IMG/VR virus record: IMGVR_UViG_2778261382_000002
From: a virus
Lineage: Duplodnaviria; Heunggongvirae; Uroviricota; Caudoviricetes
Direction: 5' to 3' (one strand)
Length of the DNA stretch: 20,648 nucleotides
Both the position numbers and the translations under genes were made by a program. Of this stretch, positions 2,173 to 16,746 are shown piece by piece. Position 1 is the first letter of the stretch, and every line of letters starts with the position of its first letter. The notes under the pieces were generated by a model. It had not been told where the DNA came from, ran no database searches, and saw only the letters and a list, made by a program, of their open reading frames with translations.

Positions 2173-2587
2173 TCAGTTAGTAATTCGTTGGGTTATTGCG
2201 ACATGGCGCCGTCGTAGCGGAAGCGTTCCGAAACCTGCGAACATTTGCCGCGTAAACCGGTTTGACGGATACCTGGCTGACGCTGAGACGTGGGCCACTG
2301 CTGAGGCTGCCGTTGACCCTGCTGAAGTTGTGAAGGGCTACAACGAGATTCTGGGCGACCTGCTACCTATAGCTGAAATTGATACTGACCGCCGTCGGGC
2401 AATCCTGCGCCTGCTGGCACATATGCGCACGCAAACTCTTGGCGCATTTATCGGCTACTTCGAAAAATTCCGCGATAACGCCCCAGACTTCTATTTCGGC
2501 GGCGAATATCGCACCGGCTGGCGGGCAGGGTTTGATTACCTGATGAAGCCAGAAACACTGCGTAAAACCAGGGAAGGGGCATTATGA
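2111..2587 (+). CDS. Phage replication initiation protein, C-terminal fragment (probably N-terminally truncated), coupled to the helicase gene
   Basis: The C-terminal roughly 100 aa (AEVVKGYNEILGDLLPIAEIDTDRRRAILRLLAHMRTQ...FGGEYRTGWRAGFDYLM) resemble the conserved C-terminal domain of phage O-like replication proteins that partner DnaB-type helicases. The first roughly 55 codons are W/C/R-rich and look non-coding. Stop overlaps the helicase start (ATGA at 2584-2587). Confidence 0.4.
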   Translation: MYQTLTFMVWCISHRYSVAEIQLVIRWVIATWRRRSGSVPKPANICRVNRFDGYLADAETWATAEAAVDPAEVVKGYNEILGDLLPIAEIDTDRRRAILRLLAHMRTQTLGAFIGYFEKFRDNAPDFYFGGEYRTGWRAGFDYLMKPETLRKTREGAL

Positions 2588-3975
2588 ATCCAGAAGAACT
2601 GGAAGCGATCGTTCTCGCTGGTCTGATTAACGGTGGCGCGACGCCTGACGCGTTTGATGTGATTGCCACTACTCCGGAGGAAGCCTTCAGCATCGTGTTT
2701 CACCGTCGCGCTTTCAGCGAAATCAAAAAGCAGGCACTGGCGAACGGCATGATCGACATGTTGTTTATCAGCGAAGCGCTGGGCGGTTCCAGCCTTGCGG
2801 ATCTGTCTCAAATATCCCGGATCCCGGCAACGGTACCGAATCTGAAAGGCTATGCCGGGAAAATGGTGCGGGCATGGCGGAGCCGCAAAATGGCGGCATT
2901 GTTGCAATCTGGCGCGGATGGTATCCGTAACGCTGTAAACCAGAGTCAGCGTGATGAGGTTATTGAATCTCATGTTGCTCAGGTGCTGGATATGAGCGCC
3001 GCTACCGGCACAGTCCAGCCGGTACACATCAAAGAGCTGTTACCGCTCTACATTGACACCGTTGATAAACGGATGTCTGGCGACGCGCAGGAAATGATGC
3101 TGAAAACCGGAGTCGAGGATCTGGATGTCGCCCTGGGCGGTATCAACATGACCGACCTTGTTGTGGTTGCCGGTCGTCCAGGCATGGGGAAAACGGAATT
3201 TACCCTGAAGATTATCGATGGCGTTACCGCAGATGGCGGCGGCGCACTGTTTTTCAGCATGGAAATGGGCGCTCAGCAGATTGTTGAACGTACCGTTGCC
3301 GGGGCTGGGAATATGTCCACGTCGCGTCTGCGTAATCCAAAAGAAATGGACGATGAGGATTTGACCAGATTAACCGCCGCGCTTGCAATCATGCAGGATC
3401 GCGATATCTGGATTGTTGATGCCACTGATTTGACGATTGAGCAGATCCGCGCCATTGCAGAGACTCATAAACGCCGTTATCCGCACCTGAAGTTGATTGG
3501 TGTTGATTACATGGGCCTGATCAAAAAACCGAAGGCCGAGCGCCACGATCTCGCTGTCGGGCATATCTCCCGCAACATGAAGACTATGGCCATGCGTCTG
3601 CATACCCCTGTTTTTGCTCTTAGCCAGCTTTCCCGCCAGGTGGATTCTCGACCTGCTGGCCAGCGTCGCCCGGTGATGTCGGACCTGCGCGATTCCGGCA
3701 GTGTTGAGCAGGACGCTGACAGCATTTTGTTTTTGTACCGCGATGAAGTTTACACACCTGATTCACCTGCAAAGGGTATCGCCGAGGTGATTATCGGTAA
3801 AAACCGTTCTGGCGGGGCAGGTGAAATTATTTATCAGGAATTCCGGAATGGGCATTTCCTGCCAGTTGATCAACACGTAGCACGCGAAAAATTACGCATC
3901 CAGAAGGAGGCAGAGCAACCGAGAAAACGTGAAAAACGGTATTCAAACAAAAACTTTAATACGGACCCATTTTAA
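2584..3975 (+). CDS. Replicative DNA helicase, DnaB family (phage-encoded)
   Basis: 463 aa with Walker A GRPGMGKT, DnaB-like N-terminal domain and C-terminal RecA-like core motifs (FFSMEM, LSQLSR, SDLRDSGSVEQDAD). Size and motif spacing are typical of DnaB. Confidence 0.9.
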   Translation: MNPEELEAIVLAGLINGGATPDAFDVIATTPEEAFSIVFHRRAFSEIKKQALANGMIDMLFISEALGGSSLADLSQISRIPATVPNLKGYAGKMVRAWRSRKMAALLQSGADGIRNAVNQSQRDEVIESHVAQVLDMSAATGTVQPVHIKELLPLYIDTVDKRMSGDAQEMMLKTGVEDLDVALGGINMTDLVVVAGRPGMGKTEFTLKIIDGVTADGGGALFFSMEMGAQQIVERTVAGAGNMSTSRLRNPKEMDDEDLTRLTAALAIMQDRDIWIVDATDLTIEQIRAIAETHKRRYPHLKLIGVDYMGLIKKPKAERHDLAVGHISRNMKTMAMRLHTPVFALSQLSRQVDSRPAGQRRPVMSDLRDSGSVEQDADSILFLYRDEVYTPDSPAKGIAEVIIGKNRSGGAGEIIYQEFRNGHFLPVDQHVAREKLRIQKEAEQPRKREKRYSNKNFNTDPF

Positions 3976-9819: not shown

Positions 9820-10352
9820 GCGGACTGGATGCATTTGACGAATATCTTGATCGCGTTAAAGGCGCGGTTTTACAAATACCGTTCATCAAAACATTCGGAA
9901 TTTATCCGGAAATTCCGGCTGGATTTGAAACGCCAGCTCTGTTCCTGGAAATCAGCAACTGGTCACAGAGTGACGAATCGGTTCCAGGCTCAATTCAGTC
10001 AGTCGAGCTGTCGTGTAATTTGTATTTGCTGCGTGAATTTGCAGCTGATCAGTACGGACTGAAATCGCAGAATGCAGCGCTCTATATGACGAGCTGGATC
10101 AATGGGCGAATGTTCGGTCCCGGAACTAAACCGGCAAAATTCAGCGACGCGGAACCGTGCGACTGGATTAAAAACGGGCAGTCAGTCGGTTCGCATTCAG
10201 TTCAGTGCGTGTCGTTCACGCAGGTTGTAGGCGTTGGTCCAGATATTTTCGATTATCCCTCACAGGGGACCCTGAAAAATATATACGTCGGAATAGCACC
10301 AGATATCGGCGCAGAACATGAGGGCGACTATTATGGCCCAATCGGACGATGA
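9816..10352 (+). CDS. Putative tail completion / tail terminator protein (position of P2 gpR-S / lambda gpU)
   Basis: 178 aa, ATGA-coupled to the upstream gene, immediately precedes the baseplate spike gene. Function inferred from position only. Confidence 0.4.
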   Translation: MSGLDAFDEYLDRVKGAVLQIPFIKTFGIYPEIPAGFETPALFLEISNWSQSDESVPGSIQSVELSCNLYLLREFAADQYGLKSQNAALYMTSWINGRMFGPGTKPAKFSDAEPCDWIKNGQSVGSHSVQCVSFTQVVGVGPDIFDYPSQGTLKNIYVGIAPDIGAEHEGDYYGPIGR

Positions 10353-11235
10353 ATATGCTGCAGCGGAGAACGCGCGCAGGCTGCGTGACGCAGTTAAACG
10401 CGGCACGATAGCTGCAGTTAAAATGAATCCTCCACGCTGCCGAGTCTCATTTGGTGGCGAACACCAGTCAGGCTGGCTGCAGTGGTTTACTCACGCCACC
10501 TCAGAACGCGTCGACTGGAGCGCACCATCAGTGGGCGATCCCGTTACTGTTGTTTCTGAGGGTGGGGATACGCGGAACGGTGTAGTTATGCTCGGGCTGC
10601 ACATTGACGACAAAGCTCCGTCAAGCAATGACCCCCATGATCATGTCACTGCATACTGTGACGGGGCTACGATGACGTATAACACAAAAAATCACACTCT
10701 GACATGGCAGGGCGTACCGGACGGCGTGGTAAAAATACTCGGTGAGTCTGAAATAGAAATATTTGGACGCGCAGATGTTACTATTAATAGCGAAAATGTA
10801 GTTAATATCCATGGTGGGAAATTAATTAACGCAGACGCTGATATTATTAATGTCACAGCGACAGATACAATTAACGCACATGCTGATTTAGTGAACGTTA
10901 TAGCAACGAGTTCTGTTAGTGTTACTGCTGCGAACAGAATATCGCTGACAGCTCAAACAATCAGCGCGTGGGCTCCGGGTGGTATAACACTAGCTGGTCC
11001 AACGCATATTACCGAGACATTAGTAGTAGATAAATTAGCGACATTCCGTAACGATATTTCTGTCACTGGAGATAACGGTGGAACAGGTAATATCACAACT
11101 CGCGGTAGTGTGTTAGCAGGGCAAGAGGTGCAGGACCGACAAGGCACAATGACTGAGGTCCGCACAACGTACAACGGACACACTCATATATGTCCGGACG
11201 GGGAAACACAACAACCGAACCAACCAATGGCGTAA
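10333..11235 (+). CDS. Baseplate central spike protein, P2 gpV-like
   Basis: N-terminal region CRVSFGGEHQSGWLQWFTHATS...WSAPSVGDPV parallels P2 gpV; C-terminal beta-helix-like repeats (VTINSENVVNIHGGKLINADADIINVTATDTINAHADLVNV) and an apex HxH motif (YNGHTHICPDG). ATG 10333 has GAGGG 8 nt upstream; the ATG at 10318 is an alternative start. Confidence 0.85.
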   Translation: MAQSDDEYAAAENARRLRDAVKRGTIAAVKMNPPRCRVSFGGEHQSGWLQWFTHATSERVDWSAPSVGDPVTVVSEGGDTRNGVVMLGLHIDDKAPSSNDPHDHVTAYCDGATMTYNTKNHTLTWQGVPDGVVKILGESEIEIFGRADVTINSENVVNIHGGKLINADADIINVTATDTINAHADLVNVIATSSVSVTAANRISLTAQTISAWAPGGITLAGPTHITETLVVDKLATFRNDISVTGDNGGTGNITTRGSVLAGQEVQDRQGTMTEVRTTYNGHTHICPDGETQQPNQPMA

Positions 11236-11237
11236 AT

Positions 11238-11579
11238 ATGCTTGGAATGGACCGTAACACCGGTAAGCCTTTATCGGGGACTGATCACATTTGTCAGTCT
11301 ATCGTTGATATTTTAACGACCCCGCTGGGAACCCGTGTAATGTTGCCGGAATACGGCAGCAAATTATTTGACCTCGTTGATAATCCCACTGATCCGTCGC
11401 TTGCTATGAGAATAATAATGGAAAGTGCAGGAGCAATAGCACGCTGGGAACCACGCGTCAGAATTGACAGAATAAATGTGTTAGCAGTGGACATCGGGAA
11501 AATAACAATATTAATTATCGCAACAGATATCGAAACACAACAGCGATTAGAGTTTAATAATATGGAACTGATATTTTGA
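11238..11579 (+). CDS. Baseplate wedge protein, P2 gpW / T4 gp25-like
   Basis: MLGMDRNTGKPLSGTDHICQSIVDILTTPLGTRVMLPEYGSKLFDLVDNP parallels P2 gpW (YLGMNRSDG...HISQSIGDILRTPVGSRVMRRDYGS). Start chosen by alignment; the track ORF begins at 11190. Confidence 0.85.
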   Translation: MLGMDRNTGKPLSGTDHICQSIVDILTTPLGTRVMLPEYGSKLFDLVDNPTDPSLAMRIIMESAGAIARWEPRVRIDRINVLAVDIGKITILIIATDIETQQRLEFNNMELIF

Positions 11580-12496
11580 TAACATCAACAGTTCAGAATT
11601 CGATAGTGAAAACTATTGATATGAGTCTGCTGCCGCCGCCAGCATTCGTTAAAACCCCATTATTTTCAGATGTTAAATCCAGTCTACTGTCAGAATTGCA
11701 GATATTATATCCACAATTTAACGCACTCCTGGAGTCAGACCCGGCCGTTAAACTGCTGGAAATAGTTGCATACAGAGAAATCATTATTACAGCTCGGGTA
11801 AATCAGGGGATGCTCGCTGTATTGCTCGCGTTTGCAAAAGGGAGTGACCTCGACCAGATCGGCGCTAATTTTGACTGCCTGCGGCTGTTGATAACGCCAG
11901 CTAATCCTGACGCAATTCCTCCGACTGAGGGGGTTTACGAGAGTGACGACGAGTATCGTCATCGCATACAGCTATCATGGTACGCGCGGAATACTGCCGG
12001 CAGTACGAACGCCTATAACTATTTCGCGCTGTCGAGTGATCCCGACGTTCTGTCAGCTCAGGCGTACGGCCCGCCGGTGACCCAGCCTGGATACGTCGAT
12101 ATGTATGTTTTGTCGCGAACCGGCGACGGCACTCCGCCTCAATCACTACTGAATACAGTGAATGCGGCCCTGTCTCCTGACGATACTCGACCGCTGACTG
12201 ATTTCGTGACTGTAAAACCTGCGTCGAACCTGAATTACCGGGTTGAAGCCGTTATCGTAGCGGGGCTCGGTCCCGATCAGAACGTGTTGCTCAACGGTGC
12301 TCAAAGCGATTTAGCTATATACGTGGCTACACAACATAAAATCGGGGCGACAGCAGCCCTGTCAGGAATTTACGACGCGATACATCGTGACGGAACGGAG
12401 CGTGTGATTCTGATATCGCCAACAGAGGATGTGATTGCTGGCGTCGGACAGGCTCCGTACTGCACAGAAATCAAACTCAGCGTGCAAATGGGGTAG
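11576..12496 (+). CDS. Baseplate assembly protein, P2 gpJ-like
   Basis: 306 aa; KLLEIVAYREIIITARVNQ, DLDQIGANFDCLRLLITPA and ESDDEYRHRIQLS parallel P2 gpJ. The track start at 11576 is TTG; the ATG at 11621 (MSLLPPPAF) is a plausible alternative. Confidence 0.88.
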   Translation: MITSTVQNSIVKTIDMSLLPPPAFVKTPLFSDVKSSLLSELQILYPQFNALLESDPAVKLLEIVAYREIIITARVNQGMLAVLLAFAKGSDLDQIGANFDCLRLLITPANPDAIPPTEGVYESDDEYRHRIQLSWYARNTAGSTNAYNYFALSSDPDVLSAQAYGPPVTQPGYVDMYVLSRTGDGTPPQSLLNTVNAALSPDDTRPLTDFVTVKPASNLNYRVEAVIVAGLGPDQNVLLNGAQSDLAIYVATQHKIGATAALSGIYDAIHRDGTERVILISPTEDVIAGVGQAPYCTEIKLSVQMG

Positions 12497-12498
12497 CC

Positions 12499-13125
12499 AT
12501 GACAAGTCAAAGCGTACTGCCTCCGAACGCAATAACCCCTGAGAGGGCGCTTGAGGTTGTTTTATCTCACGTCGGCGATCTGCCTGGCGATATTCGAATT
12601 ATTAAAAATCCCGATTTGTGCCCTGCAAATCTGTTGCCGTGGCTGGCGTGGGAGTACGCGGTCACCTACTGGAACCCCGACTGGAGCGAGCAGCAAAAAC
12701 GCGAAATTATTAAGGCCGCAGCCTGGCAAAATAAACATCGCGGCACGCGTGGTGCCGTCGAACGAGCATTATTAACGGTGGGATTTGAGAGCAAAATGAG
12801 AGAGTGGTTTGAAGCCACGCCCAGGGACGACCCGTATACATTCGCAATTAAAATATATCTGCTAAAAAGTATAGGGTTAGATTTAGAACTATTGAATACC
12901 TTTATTGCACAAATATTTGATGCAAAAAATTGCCGTTCCTTATTAAAAGAAATAAATTTTGAAACGGGTGTCGATGGTGAATTTTTTATAGCTGGTGCGC
13001 CTTACGCGAAAATAGGCGTAAATATCCCAGCAGACGGCGACGGCGGTGTAAAAATTAACGGCGGGCTATATATATCAGGCTCGCCAATTGTGAGTTTGTT
13101 AGTGGAGATAGGACCTAATGGCTAA
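12499..13125 (+). CDS. Baseplate / tail protein, P2 gpI-like
   Basis: 208 aa immediately after gpJ in conserved order; LLPWLAWEYAVTYWNPDWSEQQKREII is typical of the gpI family. Confidence 0.8.
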   Translation: MTSQSVLPPNAITPERALEVVLSHVGDLPGDIRIIKNPDLCPANLLPWLAWEYAVTYWNPDWSEQQKREIIKAAAWQNKHRGTRGAVERALLTVGFESKMREWFEATPRDDPYTFAIKIYLLKSIGLDLELLNTFIAQIFDAKNCRSLLKEINFETGVDGEFFIAGAPYAKIGVNIPADGDGGVKINGGLYISGSPIVSLLVEIGPNG

Positions 13126-14329
13126 ATTAAAATCAAATCTGAAAGCGAGCGCGAGCCAGGTTTATGCGGTACTGACAGACCGGGGGGCGCAACTTGAAGC
13201 CGCTGCGCTGGCATCGGGTGTACCCGTGGTGCTGAATAAATTCGTTATTGGCGACGCAAACGGAAACGACGACGTAACACCGGACCCGGCACGAACTGCA
13301 TTAATTCACGAGACGTATCGTGGGGATATTAAATCCGCAGAAAATAGCGGTAACCAGGTTATCTTTACACTTTACGTACCGCCAGACACTGGGGGCTATA
13401 CTATCCGTGAGGTGGGGATATTAACAGATAAAGGCGAGCTGTACTCTGTGGCGCGCTCGCCGGACATTTTAAAACCTACGGACAGCAACGGTGCGCTGAT
13501 TTCAATCACGTATAAATACACACTCGCGGTGTCCAGCACATCTACGGTTAATGTTGTAGTATATGACAACTACGTAACTCCCGAGGAAGCTGACAAAAAA
13601 TATTTGCAGATAAGTAAAAACTTATCTGAAATTCCCGCAAATGGTGAAACTGCTCAGCAGGCTGCGCGGAAAAATATTGGTATAGATGGGGACGTTGCAT
13701 ATAGAGATAAGGGTAATGCATTTACTCATCCAAATACTTTTAAAGATGATGTGATTTTTGAAGACGTTTTATCCTCTAAAAAACAAATAAATATAAACAA
13801 ACCGGGCACTGATTTGACGTTGTTTTCACTTGCTGGTTTATCAGATGTGTCGGGCGATTATTTAGATTTTTCGACCCGTGGAGAAAACAATCAGAAGGTT
13901 TTTTATAGATTACGCGGAGTTCACTATGATGGCCTGGTATTACTGTGTGGCGGAATGACGTATAAATACTGGAATGAGGCTAATCTTAAACCGGTTAAAA
14001 CGATTAACGGGGAGTCGCCGGATGAAAATGGCAACATAGATATAAGTCTTTCACCGGACCCATCACCGGAAATAGGTGTTGTTGGCGCGGTTAATACTTA
14101 TGCGCTTGTCGCTATTAATCATGCACCACAAATACTACCGGGCTCCATATGGGCTGGAGGTGATTTATATTACGCTAGTATAAATAATACCGGTTCATAT
14201 AACACGGATATTGCCACAAAACCATTTTATGACACACCCCTTGTTGGCTCATGGCGAGCTATGGCGTATTCACCAGGCGGGGTCGGTGATATTGGGACTG
14301 CCTGTTTTTTAGCTATTAGGATTGCGTAA
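13118..14329 (+). CDS. Tail fiber protein (P2 gpH-like N-terminal domain, divergent A+T-rich C-terminal receptor-binding region)
   Basis: N-terminal roughly 150 aa (VIGDANGNDDVTPDPARTALIHETYRGDI...YVPPDTGGYTIREVGILTDKGELYSVA) parallel the P2 gpH N-terminus. The C-terminal roughly 250 aa are unrelated and visibly more A+T-rich. Confidence 0.85.
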   Translation: MAKLKSNLKASASQVYAVLTDRGAQLEAAALASGVPVVLNKFVIGDANGNDDVTPDPARTALIHETYRGDIKSAENSGNQVIFTLYVPPDTGGYTIREVGILTDKGELYSVARSPDILKPTDSNGALISITYKYTLAVSSTSTVNVVVYDNYVTPEEADKKYLQISKNLSEIPANGETAQQAARKNIGIDGDVAYRDKGNAFTHPNTFKDDVIFEDVLSSKKQININKPGTDLTLFSLAGLSDVSGDYLDFSTRGENNQKVFYRLRGVHYDGLVLLCGGMTYKYWNEANLKPVKTINGESPDENGNIDISLSPDPSPEIGVVGAVNTYALVAINHAPQILPGSIWAGGDLYYASINNTGSYNTDIATKPFYDTPLVGSWRAMAYSPGGVGDIGTACFLAIRIA

Positions 14330-14619
14330 TGATAAGTGTTGATTCATTTAGAAAAATAACAAACCCTGTTTTTAATGACGAGCATGGGTTATCTATAAAT
14401 ATTATTTGCGATATTGACGGGATTGGAAACGACATTCCATTCACCGCAATGAAAAATGATTGCGAGGAACACGGTAGGGTTTTATATGAAAGAGCGCTGA
14501 GCGGGGATTATGGGAGCATTTCTAAATTTGTAAAAAAGAGCAGACGCAAAAACTCCAGACTACATTACGGACTGTTGGCGATCTGTCAATTGAGGCATTC
14601 TCAATTCAGTGTGCAGTAG
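14329..14619 (+). CDS. Putative tail fiber assembly chaperone (possibly frameshifted; continuation 14526-14717 in another frame)
   Basis: TAATG-coupled to the fiber gene, in the expected Tfa position. A second frame open from 14526 to the TGA at 14715-14717 encodes ...SIQCAVDAGTASDAQIENLAELKEAIATRIGENREGIK, which resembles Tfa C-terminal motifs; the frames meet at an A6 tract (14532-14537). Confidence 0.45.
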   Translation: MISVDSFRKITNPVFNDEHGLSINIICDIDGIGNDIPFTAMKNDCEEHGRVLYERALSGDYGSISKFVKKSRRKNSRLHYGLLAICQLRHSQFSVQ

Positions 14620-14713
14620 ATGCCGGAACCGCATCTGACGCGCAAATCGAAAACTTGGCCGAGCTTAAAGAAGCAATAGCGACGCGAATTGGTGAAAATA
14701 GAGAAGGAATAAA

Positions 14714-16216
14714 ATGAGCGTAACTAATTTTTTGCACGGTATTCGCACGCTCGAATACGACGACGGCACAAAAGAGATCAACACAGTAGATATTTCCGTG
14801 ATTGGGATTGTTGGTACTGCGACGAACGTCGCGGAGGCTACGAGAGCATCATTAACGTGGGGCTCATCGCTGGCTGATAATCTCGTTGAGTTTTCAACTG
14901 TATCACCGGGCAGCGACGGGAATAAATGGGTTGTTGAAATTGTAGATATGACAGTTGAGGGCGCAACCTGCACTCCAGGATATAGCACGCTGCCCGACGG
15001 AACAAAAAAATTAACGATGATTACGGAGCCGGGAATGACCCCCGGCAAAATGTATGATCAGAATCAGGAATATAGAGAGGGGAAAACAGACGGAGAGTGG
15101 ATTAATGTAACTTTTGGTGGCGAGCATTCCGGAACCGGTACAGTATTTGGTCTTCCACCAACAAATTTATCAGGTGGAACAGATGACGCATTCCCGATTA
15201 ATTCTCCTGTATTAATTGCAGGTAGTCAGAAGAAAGCCGCCCTGCTCGGGAAATACGGGACTCTGCCCCCCGCTATTTCTGATATTTTAAATCAGACTGA
15301 TGCATTAATCGTTGTTGTTCGCGTTGTAGAGAGTAGCGACGACGCTGATATGAGCGAAAATGTTATCGCCGGAATTAATTCGCTTTTGACGTCAGCGCAA
15401 ATTAACGAAGTTACCCCGCGAATTATTATAGCGCCGGATTACAGCGCACGAGACGAAATAGCGGCTCAGCTTGAAGTGGTTGCAAATAAACTCCGGGGAG
15501 TGTGTTATATCGACTCTCCGCGCGCTGCTACCCCTGCAGACGTTGTGAATCGCAGGCAAAAACTCGGCGGACGCGCTGAGTTGTTGCGACCTCGCGTTTA
15601 TTCTACGAGTGATGTCAGTGGGTTATCTCGTCCGTATTCAGCTATCGCTGCTGGTTTACGAGCCCGAATTGATAATGAAAAAGGATTCTGGTGGAGTAAA
15701 TCGAACCAGAATATCTACGGAGTTACAGGGCTTGAACAAGTCGACGATTTTATTATTGGTGAGACAAACTGCACAGCGAACCTGCTGAATGCCAGCCAGG
15801 TCAGCACGATTATTCGCTATGACGGGTTCAGACACTGGGGTAACTATTTGTGCAGCCTCAGCCCGCAATGGTCTTTCGAGAGCGTTCGTCGAACAGCTGA
15901 CGTAATTGAGGATTCTATAGCCCGGGCAATGATGACCGATTTTATTGTTCGTCCGATAGACCTGCACCTCGGAACAGACGTTGTCGAGTCGATAAACGCA
16001 TATCTGCACAAATTAGAGGAGCAGGGTGCGATTAACGGAGGGCGTGCGTGGTTAGACAGTGAGCTGAATACAAAAGAAAGCCTGGCTGCGGGTAATCTTT
16101 ATATTAATGTTGATTTTGGTCCGAAATCTCCGGCACAAACAATTACGTTAATGTACCGCATTAATAATGACTATACAGTTGAAGCACTGGCCTCCCTTTT
16201 TAAAGAAGCAGCCTGA
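14714..16216 (+). CDS. Contractile tail sheath protein, P2 gpFI-like
   Basis: 500 aa; VIGIVGTA near the N-terminus and the C-terminal GFWWSKSNQNIYGVTG...TIIRYDGFRHWGNYLCS...LYINVDFGP parallel P2 FI. Confidence 0.92.
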   Translation: MSVTNFLHGIRTLEYDDGTKEINTVDISVIGIVGTATNVAEATRASLTWGSSLADNLVEFSTVSPGSDGNKWVVEIVDMTVEGATCTPGYSTLPDGTKKLTMITEPGMTPGKMYDQNQEYREGKTDGEWINVTFGGEHSGTGTVFGLPPTNLSGGTDDAFPINSPVLIAGSQKKAALLGKYGTLPPAISDILNQTDALIVVVRVVESSDDADMSENVIAGINSLLTSAQINEVTPRIIIAPDYSARDEIAAQLEVVANKLRGVCYIDSPRAATPADVVNRRQKLGGRAELLRPRVYSTSDVSGLSRPYSAIAAGLRARIDNEKGFWWSKSNQNIYGVTGLEQVDDFIIGETNCTANLLNASQVSTIIRYDGFRHWGNYLCSLSPQWSFESVRRTADVIEDSIARAMMTDFIVRPIDLHLGTDVVESINAYLHKLEEQGAINGGRAWLDSELNTKESLAAGNLYINVDFGPKSPAQTITLMYRINNDYTVEALASLFKEAA

Positions 16217-16233: not shown

Positions 16234-16746
16234 ATGTCAGACAGCAACGCTTACCGCGCGTTTGCGCTATTCGTGCAGGGCGAACGGGTTTTAAATTGTA
16301 CTGAATATACTCCAGTCGATATGAAAATAATCGAAGACGAGTTTAAAACAGGCGCGATGGATACAGCTATCACTCTGGACGGAGGAATGGAGAAAATGTC
16401 AGCCAGTTTTAAAGTCTCTGGCTCCGATTCTGGTGTGATGGGGTATTTTGGATTAATACCAGGTGCTAAAACAAGGTTCGAAATTCGAAGTGCATATACT
16501 GACAATTACGGTGTCAATTTTGAACGTATTGATACATATGAGGGGCTTATTACGGCGATTACTGATGACGCGCAGGGGACTGATTCAAAATCAGCAGTTG
16601 GGCAATCAGTAACGATTGCGCCGAGCTATTATAAACGAGTTCAAAATGGAAAAGTTATTTACGAGATTCATCCTGCAAAAATGAAACGAGTAATTAATGG
16701 TGTTGACGTTCTTGCGGGCGTTGCTCGTATTCTCCATGTATATTAA
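16234..16746 (+). CDS. Tail tube protein, P2 gpFII-like
   Basis: 170 aa directly after the sheath gene; C-terminus KRVINGVDVLAGVARILHVY resembles the P2 FII C-terminus; GGAG SD 8 nt upstream. Confidence 0.88.
   Translation: MSDSNAYRAFALFVQGERVLNCTEYTPVDMKIIEDEFKTGAMDTAITLDGGMEKMSASFKVSGSDSGVMGYFGLIPGAKTRFEIRSAYTDNYGVNFERIDTYEGLITAITDDAQGTDSKSAVGQSVTIAPSYYKRVQNGKVIYEIHPAKMKRVINGVDVLAGVARILHVY

Follow-up and report, generated by a model that had tools for sequence, protein, structure and literature searches.

How does a P2-like tail come to carry a fibre that resembles the P2 fibre gpH at its baseplate end only? This question is raised by the tail fibre gene in a 20,648-nucleotide stretch of Caudoviricetes DNA (IMG/VR record IMGVR_UViG_2778261382_000002), which we refer to as the window throughout. 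The original prediction, made from the sequence alone, had placed a horizontally swapped, strongly A+T-rich host-range cassette at 13560-14329, in a fibre much shorter than gpH and conserved in its N-terminal domain alone. Our analysis leads us, with good confidence, to the view that the gene encodes the single fibre of an Escherichia coli prophage whose head is lambda-like and whose contractile tail is P2-like, that this fibre is built from five modules, and that its C-terminal tip and the N-terminal half of the chaperone-like gene downstream belong to one swapped host-range cassette.

Modules and exchange points of the fibre gene

As predicted, the fibre is much shorter than gpH, with 403 against 669 residues. 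In a BLASTP comparison, residues 37-148 align with residues 28-141 of gpH (32% identity, E 5e-15), and no alignment was obtained past residue 148, which is also where the only Pfam match on the fibre ends (PF12571, Phage_tail_fib; residues 13-148, 103.6 bits at a cutoff of 23, E 1.2e-29). Relative to gpH, the C-terminal region thus neither aligns nor keeps the base composition of the preceding part of the gene, which shifts as described below. The claim that nothing but the N-terminal domain is conserved holds for the comparison with gpH, but not within the fibre's own family, where the linker that follows (aa 148-205) is conserved in 16 members; this linker also has a weak match to positions 498-540 of phrog_26622. 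The family phrog_5075 matches the fibre over its full length (E 5e-256), while a sequence search of PDB chains with the whole fibre returned no match. On sequence grounds, the protein is a P2-type baseplate fibre of the PF12571 class, and an orthologue of gpH within the N-terminal domain only.

Beyond the linker, the middle domain (aa 206-285) is variable: its type, which we call A, was found only in the E. coli and E. fergusonii relatives P0001-P0004, with 51-98% identity to the query, and at least three other types occupy the same position in other relatives. It is followed by a short junction motif (aa 286-313) with the near-invariant residues N289, V293, N297, P301, D302, G305 and N306, and finally by an 82-residue tip. 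Across the family, the middle domain comes in at least four types and the tip in at least four as well, and these are freely combined.

The module boundaries and the points at which homology breaks off can be read directly from comparisons with related loci. Two of these, the E. coli prophages L002 and L003, share their baseplate genes with the window and encode fibres of 317 residues (2218-3171) and 305 residues (2217-3134), respectively. Their residues 1-147 are nearly identical to those of the window, except for the first 15 or so; past residue 147 they have the linker (148-195) in common with it, while the rest cannot be aligned, is about 90 residues shorter and lacks a middle domain. At the DNA level, divergence from the window starts at 13558-13560, and homology is back at the start of the sheath gene. 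The N-terminal domain is near-invariant as a protein in L002, L003 and the sequence type 131 (ST131) allele L004 despite a synonymous divergence (dS) of 0.72; the non-synonymous divergence (dN) between the window and L002/L003 is 0.01, a dN/dS of about 0.014, indicating that this domain is strongly constrained and that the part following it was replaced.

The first 15 or so residues of the fibre (codons 1-16, 13118-13165, overlapping the end of the gpI-like gene) form a small mosaic patch of their own at the gpI/fibre junction, the third in this region. Two alleles, a 27-nt indel apart, exist here; the window and L002 have MAKLKSNLKASASQV, L004 and L003 have MAENKI, and the alleles assort independently of the type of distal cassette.

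A second breakpoint became apparent in comparison with L010, whose fibre is P0002. Identity to the window is 87-98% from 13150 to about 14010, drops to about 35% at 14020-14700 and returns to 85-97% from 14704 onwards; the distal part of P0002 is 85% identical to that of the window over the 62% of the query covered. Identity to L015 collapses at the same place, 14000-14020, and on the sheath side the window is again similar to L002, L003 and L010 from about 14704-14722 onwards. The L010 fibre gene (147-1853) encodes the N-terminal domain, linker and middle domain of the window, but ends in a P2 gpH-like tip ('KPIQKYINNVW'; a weak match to gpH 542-667, E 5e-4) and is followed by a gene for a 192-aa Caudo_TAP protein. 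P2-type tips and those of the window's type, named GTWR after their motif, are therefore interchangeable on one shaft. The clearest case is provided by L012, from a Salmonella enterica assembly, and L013, a metagenome contig from Logan: through fibre codon 283 the two share at least 90% identity, which falls to about 35% over the tip and the N-terminal half of the chaperone gene (about 550 bp) and returns to 92-100% in the C-terminal half of this gene.

These alignments reveal two nested exchange points, at 13559 and about 14020. Since the two conserved segments, linker and junction motif, coincide with them, we infer that these segments serve as homology patches for recombination. The minimal exchangeable unit comprises the tip and the chaperone N-module (about 14020-14540), because these two co-vary as in the Tfa chaperone model, and the larger unit extends from 13559 to about 14715. 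The abrupt losses of identity at L002/L003, at L010 and between L012 and L013, together with the mixing of module types, support the swapped cassette proposed originally. Its left end had been placed correctly to within one base, the codon boundary being 13559; its right end had taken in the fibre part only, whereas the cassette includes the next gene or its N-terminal half.

Identity to related loci drops once more some 100-250 nt into the sheath gene (window about 14800-15000 against L010; about 3650-4000 of L012 against L013), which suggests either a mosaic boundary in the N-terminal region of the sheath or an alignment-end artefact.

An invertible host-range switch of the Gin/Cin type was considered as well and rejected, as no inverted repeats were found within 12900-14900 and the gene has a single fibre C-terminus. 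The Mu G segment and the P1 C segment resemble the present locus in pairing alternative fibre C-termini with alternative chaperones; unlike them, the window holds one cassette in one orientation, and variation arises between genomes by recombination rather than by inversion.

The tip domain and its chaperone-like partner

To describe the tip, we built a profile from six enterobacterial tips. A word-indexed protein search with this profile yielded just four proteins, and the family became visible in an exhaustive HMMER search of 1.8 billion representative proteins (E <=0.001), with 342 matches. Among the 150 matches listed, 77 of the 79 that cover the full tip form the extreme C-terminus of proteins 87-735 residues long. 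The family consensus, GAVGTYA.L...G.T.AGS.L.YAG...PSGTWR.MG...TLFLRIS, contains four signature motifs (G-x-V-G-T-Y-A, G-S-x-L-x-Y-A, G-T/S-W-R-x-M and L-x-x-R-I-S/A), which appear in the window as VGAVNTYA, GGDLYYA (with G replacing S), GSWRAM and LAIRIA. Membership of the window tip in this family is a direct observation: a hidden Markov model from which the window and its enterobacterial relatives had been left out still gives residues 322-403 a score of 49-50 bits (E about 1e-16). Pfam holds no model for the domain; in several PHROG families of tail proteins (phrog_16867, 4900 and 17472) it makes up the C-terminus. An AlphaFold2 model of the tip reached a predicted local distance difference test (pLDDT) score of 82, and its matches in BFVD are phage tail fibres.

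The same domain occurs in fibres of otherwise unrelated phages. By sequence, the profile matches one PDB entry, the tail fibre gp47 of the Pbunavirus Pa193 (9b45_2; residues 879-961, E 8.6e-11). Of this protein the authors modelled residues 1-340 alone (PMC11456595), so that the tip is structurally unsolved. Further matches were obtained with the fibres of PE1 (41 bits), AhyVDH1 (27 bits) and PhiR5_1 (21-22 bits), compared to 4.6 bits for P2 gpH and weak scores of 8-15 bits for the fibre ends of L002 and L003. At 962 residues, the Pbunavirus fibre has a long beaded shaft and an N-terminus unrelated to that of the window, and it belongs to a different baseplate and different hosts. In PE1, mutations in the fibre and baseplate genes together make adsorption better and allow the phage to recognise truncated lipopolysaccharide (LPS; PMC12635225). 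The fibre mutation, at nucleotide 47791, alters codon 901 of gp78, a codon within the homologous tip's first loop, whose counterpart here is at about residues 333-336; this assignment follows the nucleotide position stated by the authors, as their 'T896I' corresponds to residue 901 in the GenBank translation. Because a mutation linked to LPS recognition falls inside the homologous domain, the window tip may reasonably be assumed to bind a receptor.

The start codon of the next gene, at 14329, overlaps the stop codon of the fibre gene. In most carriers, the Prokaryotic Genome Annotation Pipeline annotates a 129-aa protein here, WP_000626358.1, of which the 96-aa open reading frame of the window (ORF; 14329-14619) is a frameshifted version. 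The N-terminal module, which we call PFTA after its motif, recurs in several settings. It makes up the whole of the 77-80-aa partners encoded in L002 and L003, and is found in PE1 gp79 (36% identity, E 2e-13; likewise phrog_1795 family), in gp25 of the Aeromonas phage AhyVDH1, the C-terminal part of which matches Caudo_TAP, and in a 192-aa 'tail fiber assembly protein' of the lambdoid phage PhiR5_1. In PE1, AhyVDH1 and PhiR5_1 the PFTA gene lies directly 3' of a fibre gene with the same tip family. Tip and partner N-module co-vary at every locus examined: a GTWR-type tip is followed by a PFTA protein in the window, L004, L012, L015, PE1, AhyVDH1 and PhiR5_1, the P2 gpH-like tip of P0002 by the 192-aa Caudo_TAP protein, and a Gp53-like_C tip (P0016) by a different N-module on a C-module shared with L012. 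The C-terminal half of the 129-aa protein in turn aligns with that of the 127-aa protein of L013, which has a precomputed PF02413 match (40% identity over the whole 129 aa), and with the PF02413 stretch of AhyVDH1 gp25. A word-indexed search with the 129-aa partner returned six proteins only.

Tfa chaperones, such as those of phage Mu (Tfa) and cyanophage Pam3 (gp25), combine a variable, fibre-binding N-domain with a conserved, helical, trimerising C-domain (PMC9608196). The co-variation of tip and N-module on a constant C-module matches this model. The PFTA module nevertheless belongs to another sequence family than the N-domains of these chaperones, PFTA proteins are shorter (77-131 aa), and some natural variants lack the C-module, as does the zero-frame product of the window. 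Since the partners of L002 and L003 do without it naturally, the N-module alone may be sufficient for some tips. The pairing is also reminiscent of gpH and gpG in P2. Shared with P2 are the gene order J-I-fibre-chaperone-sheath, the PF12571 domain, a small assembly-protein gene after the fibre gene, a mosaic distal part of lower G+C content and, in the relative P0002, even a gpH-like tip with a gpG-like chaperone. Apart from its length and the loss of detectable fibre similarity past residue 148, the window differs from P2 in its lambda-like head genes and in a partner without a Pfam Caudo_TAP match; a direct comparison of this partner with P2 gpG revealed no similarity.

In the window, the two chaperone modules are not joined in one frame. 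At 14532-14537, a run of six adenines replaces the seven present in 421 of 426 carrier genomes; the remaining five share the shorter run, and in all of them the gene is unannotated. The zero-frame product consequently consists of the complete N-module and 26 out-of-frame residues, and the C-module lies in the -1 frame, which between 14538 and 14717 encodes exactly residues 71-129 of the 129-aa allele. In the zero frame, the codons GTA AAA AAG contain an in-phase A AAA AAG heptamer, which we take to be a -1 slippery sequence of the dnaX type. Slippage by one base here would regenerate exactly the 129-aa protein. Alternatively, the shorter run could be a homopolymer assembly error or a plain null mutation.

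From these elements, a route for the change of host range can be proposed. The PF12571 domain would dock a presumably trimeric fibre on the gpJ/gpI baseplate wedge, and its near-constancy would follow from the need to fit the baseplate. Recombination in the linker and in the junction motif would replace the distal parts, with the tip being exchanged jointly with the N-terminal half of the next gene. The product of the latter would be a small two-module assembly chaperone, with a tip-matched N-module and a conserved, Caudo_TAP-like helical C-module. The outcome would be a self-contained host-range cassette of lower G+C content (about 14020-14540, or 13559-14715), drawn from a pool common to unrelated phages. 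A surface polysaccharide, such as LPS, is the most likely ligand of the tip, and its binding would trigger contraction. In this scheme, trimeric state, chaperone activity, receptor binding and the type of receptor are the inferred elements, while the module boundaries, the breakpoints, the composition, the family membership of the tip and the co-variation of tip and partner are observed.

More tentatively, we entertain the possibility that the 82-aa tip and the PFTA module of about 70 aa constitute a previously undescribed pair of receptor-binding domain and chaperone that moves as a unit of about 0.5 kb between otherwise unrelated phages (P2-tailed prophages of enterobacteria, Pbunaviruses of Pseudomonas, P2-like phages of Aeromonas and lambdoid phages), the C-module possibly being attained in this strain through -1 slippage alone.

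Base composition and alternative explanations

Several observations weigh against a swapped cassette that still serves in host recognition. The AlphaFold2 tip model, a monomer prediction, has no significant neighbour in the PDB. The AlphaFold2 model of the distal fibre as a whole (aa 148-403), based on an alignment of 10 sequences, reached a pLDDT of 43 and was discarded, leaving the middle domain without a usable model. Neither the 96-aa nor the 129-aa form of the partner matches any Pfam family, including PF02413. A tblastn search of 50,697 phage records with the distal fibre retrieved four matches only, all of them prophages predicted by PHASTER, so that no characterised phage can be named as donor. 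To these are added the low GC3 of other tail genes and the out-of-frame C-module of the window, both taken up below.

Base composition changes directly at the first exchange point. Fibre codons 1-147 have a G+C content of 0.501, and of 0.503 at third codon positions (GC3), compared to 0.407 and 0.323 in codons 148-403 (13559-14329). The fall is smaller at the other positions, from 0.56 to 0.49 at the first (GC1) and from 0.44 to 0.41 at the second (GC2); being mostly at third positions, the drop is not merely a matter of amino-acid composition. The window as a whole has a G+C content of 0.493 and the small ORF after the fibre gene (14329-14619) 0.385. Values as low as that of the distal fibre region are found in only 2% of all 770-nt segments of the window, and 13560-14619 is within 0.3% of its lowest-G+C stretch of 1060 nt. 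A shift towards A+T had thus been recognised correctly, but 'strongly' overstates a G+C content of 41%, which in the last 100 codons even rises to 45% (GC3 0.31).

Conceivably, fibre and tail genes are low in G+C as a rule, through amino-acid usage or weak selection on expression, so that the low G+C content says nothing about horizontal origin. In agreement with this, GC3 is also low in other tail genes of the window (tube 0.35, gpW-like 0.40, as against 0.56-0.64 in the head genes), further patches with a G+C content of 0.38-0.40 lie at 11300-11750 (the gpW/gpJ junction) and 12800-13100 (the C-terminal part of gpI), and P2 displays the same gradient, with a GC3 of 0.62 in the N-terminal part of gpH, 0.47 in its C-terminal part and 0.40 in gpG. 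However, the change falls on the very codon at which homology breaks off (13559), affects mainly third positions and marks the lowest-G+C stretch of the window. Moreover, the independent alternative cassettes all have a low GC3 (distal part 0.37 and partner 0.32 in L002; 0.31 and 0.26 in L003), but their N-terminal domains do not (0.46-0.48), as expected of a shared mobile pool. We therefore hold it to be improbable, though deserving of some weight, that composition is uninformative here. Since the alternative cassettes as well as P2 gpH and gpG share a low GC3, the A+T-richness is the signature of a common cassette pool; it is no proof of a recent or datable transfer into the present prophage.

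A second alternative takes the fibre to be a relic of a defective prophage that has no role in host recognition and owes its conservation to clonal inheritance, mainly within ST131. This would be in line with the frameshifted partner gene, as fibre assembly may fail in the window's strain with the C-module out of frame, and with signs of decay in a relative, where the gene for the Q antiterminator is a pseudogene and an IS1 copy lies about 4.4 kb upstream of that pseudogene, near the left side of the prophage. It would also account for the lack of this fibre in isolated phages and for the many ST131 names among the listed carriers. Yet, all structural ORFs of the window are open and the partner gene is intact in 421 of the 426 copies. 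Comparing the distal part of the fibre with the ST131 allele, we counted 10 synonymous and 6 non-synonymous sites, with four amino-acid replacements; the resulting dN/dS of 0.17 argues for purifying selection, by which the distal part would have been kept as a working protein. In addition, many E. coli carry spacers against this prophage family in their clustered regularly interspaced short palindromic repeats (CRISPR), indicating that the family has circulated as an invader. A mere relic thus appears unlikely to us.

Finally, divergence of the distal part in place under diversifying selection, with no foreign modules and an N-terminal domain that simply evolved more slowly, is very improbable: unequal rates would yield some contrast given the strong purifying selection on the N-terminal domain, and the weak profile matches of the L002/L003 tips are compatible with deep divergence of one ancestral tip, but within about 30 nt identity drops from above 90% to that of random sequence, and it rises again equally sharply, lengths differ by about 90 residues with whole domains present or absent, middle-domain and tip types recombine independently, the same pair of tip and chaperone occurs on unrelated shafts in Pseudomonas, Aeromonas and lambdoid phages, and backbones as closely related as L012 and L013 already carry non-homologous tips.

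Prophage setting and implications

The swapped host-range cassette, which we prefer as an explanation, resides in an element that is well represented among E. coli genomes. The segment 12400-14800 of the window is 100% identical to several E. coli chromosomes, and 426 of 5426 complete E. coli genomes contain the fibre region at 97-100% identity; judging by strain name, several of the listed carriers (for example, JJ1887) are ST131 or ST131-associated strains. In the relative L001, the element adjoins yecA/tyrP; its head genes (terminase, gpW, portal, S49 protease, major capsid and FI) are lambda-like and its tail is P2-like. The gene order of the window is that of P2, V-W-J-I-H-G, followed by the sheath operon, and the fibre gene accordingly lies between Pfam matches to PF04865 and PF09684 on one side and PF04984/PF17482 on the other (Table 1).

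Table 1. Coordinates of the fibre locus, its modules and the neighbouring tail genes in the window.
Feature	Position	Strand	Remarks
V-like gene	10318-11235		
W-like gene	11190-11579		
J-like gene	11576-12496		
gpI-like baseplate protein gene	12499-13125	+	PF09684 (Tail_P2_I), E 4e-37; overlaps fibre start
Tail fibre gene	13118-14329	+	403 aa; sole fibre-like gene between baseplate and sheath genes
Module 1, N-terminal baseplate-attachment domain	13118-13558	+	aa 1-147; PF12571; GC3 0.50
Module 2, conserved linker	13559-13732	+	aa 148-205; 'ADKKYLQISKNLSEI..AQ..ARKNIGIDGDVAYRDK'; first exchange boundary
Module 3, variable middle domain	13733-13972	+	aa 206-285; type A
Module 4, conserved junction motif	13973-14056	+	aa 286-313; 'NLKPVKTINGESPDENGNIDIS'; second exchange boundary, near 14020
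Module 5, C-terminal tip domain	14081-14326	+	aa 322-403, 82 aa; 'GxVxTYA...GS/TWR...RI(S/A)' family
Fibre-chaperone-like gene	14329-14717	+	zero-frame ORF 14329-14619 (96 aa)
PFTA N-module	residues 1-70 of the 96-aa ORF	+	motif 'PFTA..D.E.HGR...G.YG.I'; phrog_1795 and phrog_1141 match residues 5-77
A6 run and following G (A AAA AAG)	14532-14538	+	A6 at 14532-14537; one-base deletion relative to the A7 allele
Chaperone C-module (Caudo_TAP-like helix region)	14538-14717	+	open -1 frame; TGA overlaps sheath start codon
Tail sheath gene	14714-16216	+	PF04984, PF17482; start forms the right-hand homology flank of the cassette
Genes 3' of the sheath gene			tube (16234-16746), E-like, tape measure, U-like and D-like genes

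CRISPR spacers of E. coli often target this prophage family. At the end of the gpJ-like gene, a 32-nt stretch (12467-12498) is identical to a type I-E spacer, found for example beside cas2e in NZ_CP032515.1. On the canonical strand of the spacer, this protospacer is preceded by ATG, a functional protospacer-adjacent motif of type I-E. Of 60 sampled rows from 581 genomes matching the region, 14 do so through this spacer alone; by subtraction, about 130 genomes were estimated to be of this kind. In a 2025 paper, 28 spacers of urological E. coli were likewise reported to target the family (PMC12736100).

The mosaicism of tail fibres with co-transferred chaperones has long been established, and the exchange of modular tips is textbook phage biology. 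Our main finding is therefore confirmatory, representing a well-known route by which phages change their host range; modestly interesting beyond this are an uncharacterised tip family and a partner gene frameshifted at a slippery run. With the breakpoints (13559, about 14020, about 14540 and about 14704) and the rule that a tip goes with its chaperone N-half, the locus supplies a ready plan by which P2-tailed phages or tailocins might be retargeted to E. coli, among them ST131 strains, in which the prophage is common. The tip family itself is widespread, structurally unsolved and absent from Pfam, and it is the site of an adsorption-improving mutation in Pbunaviruses used in therapy.

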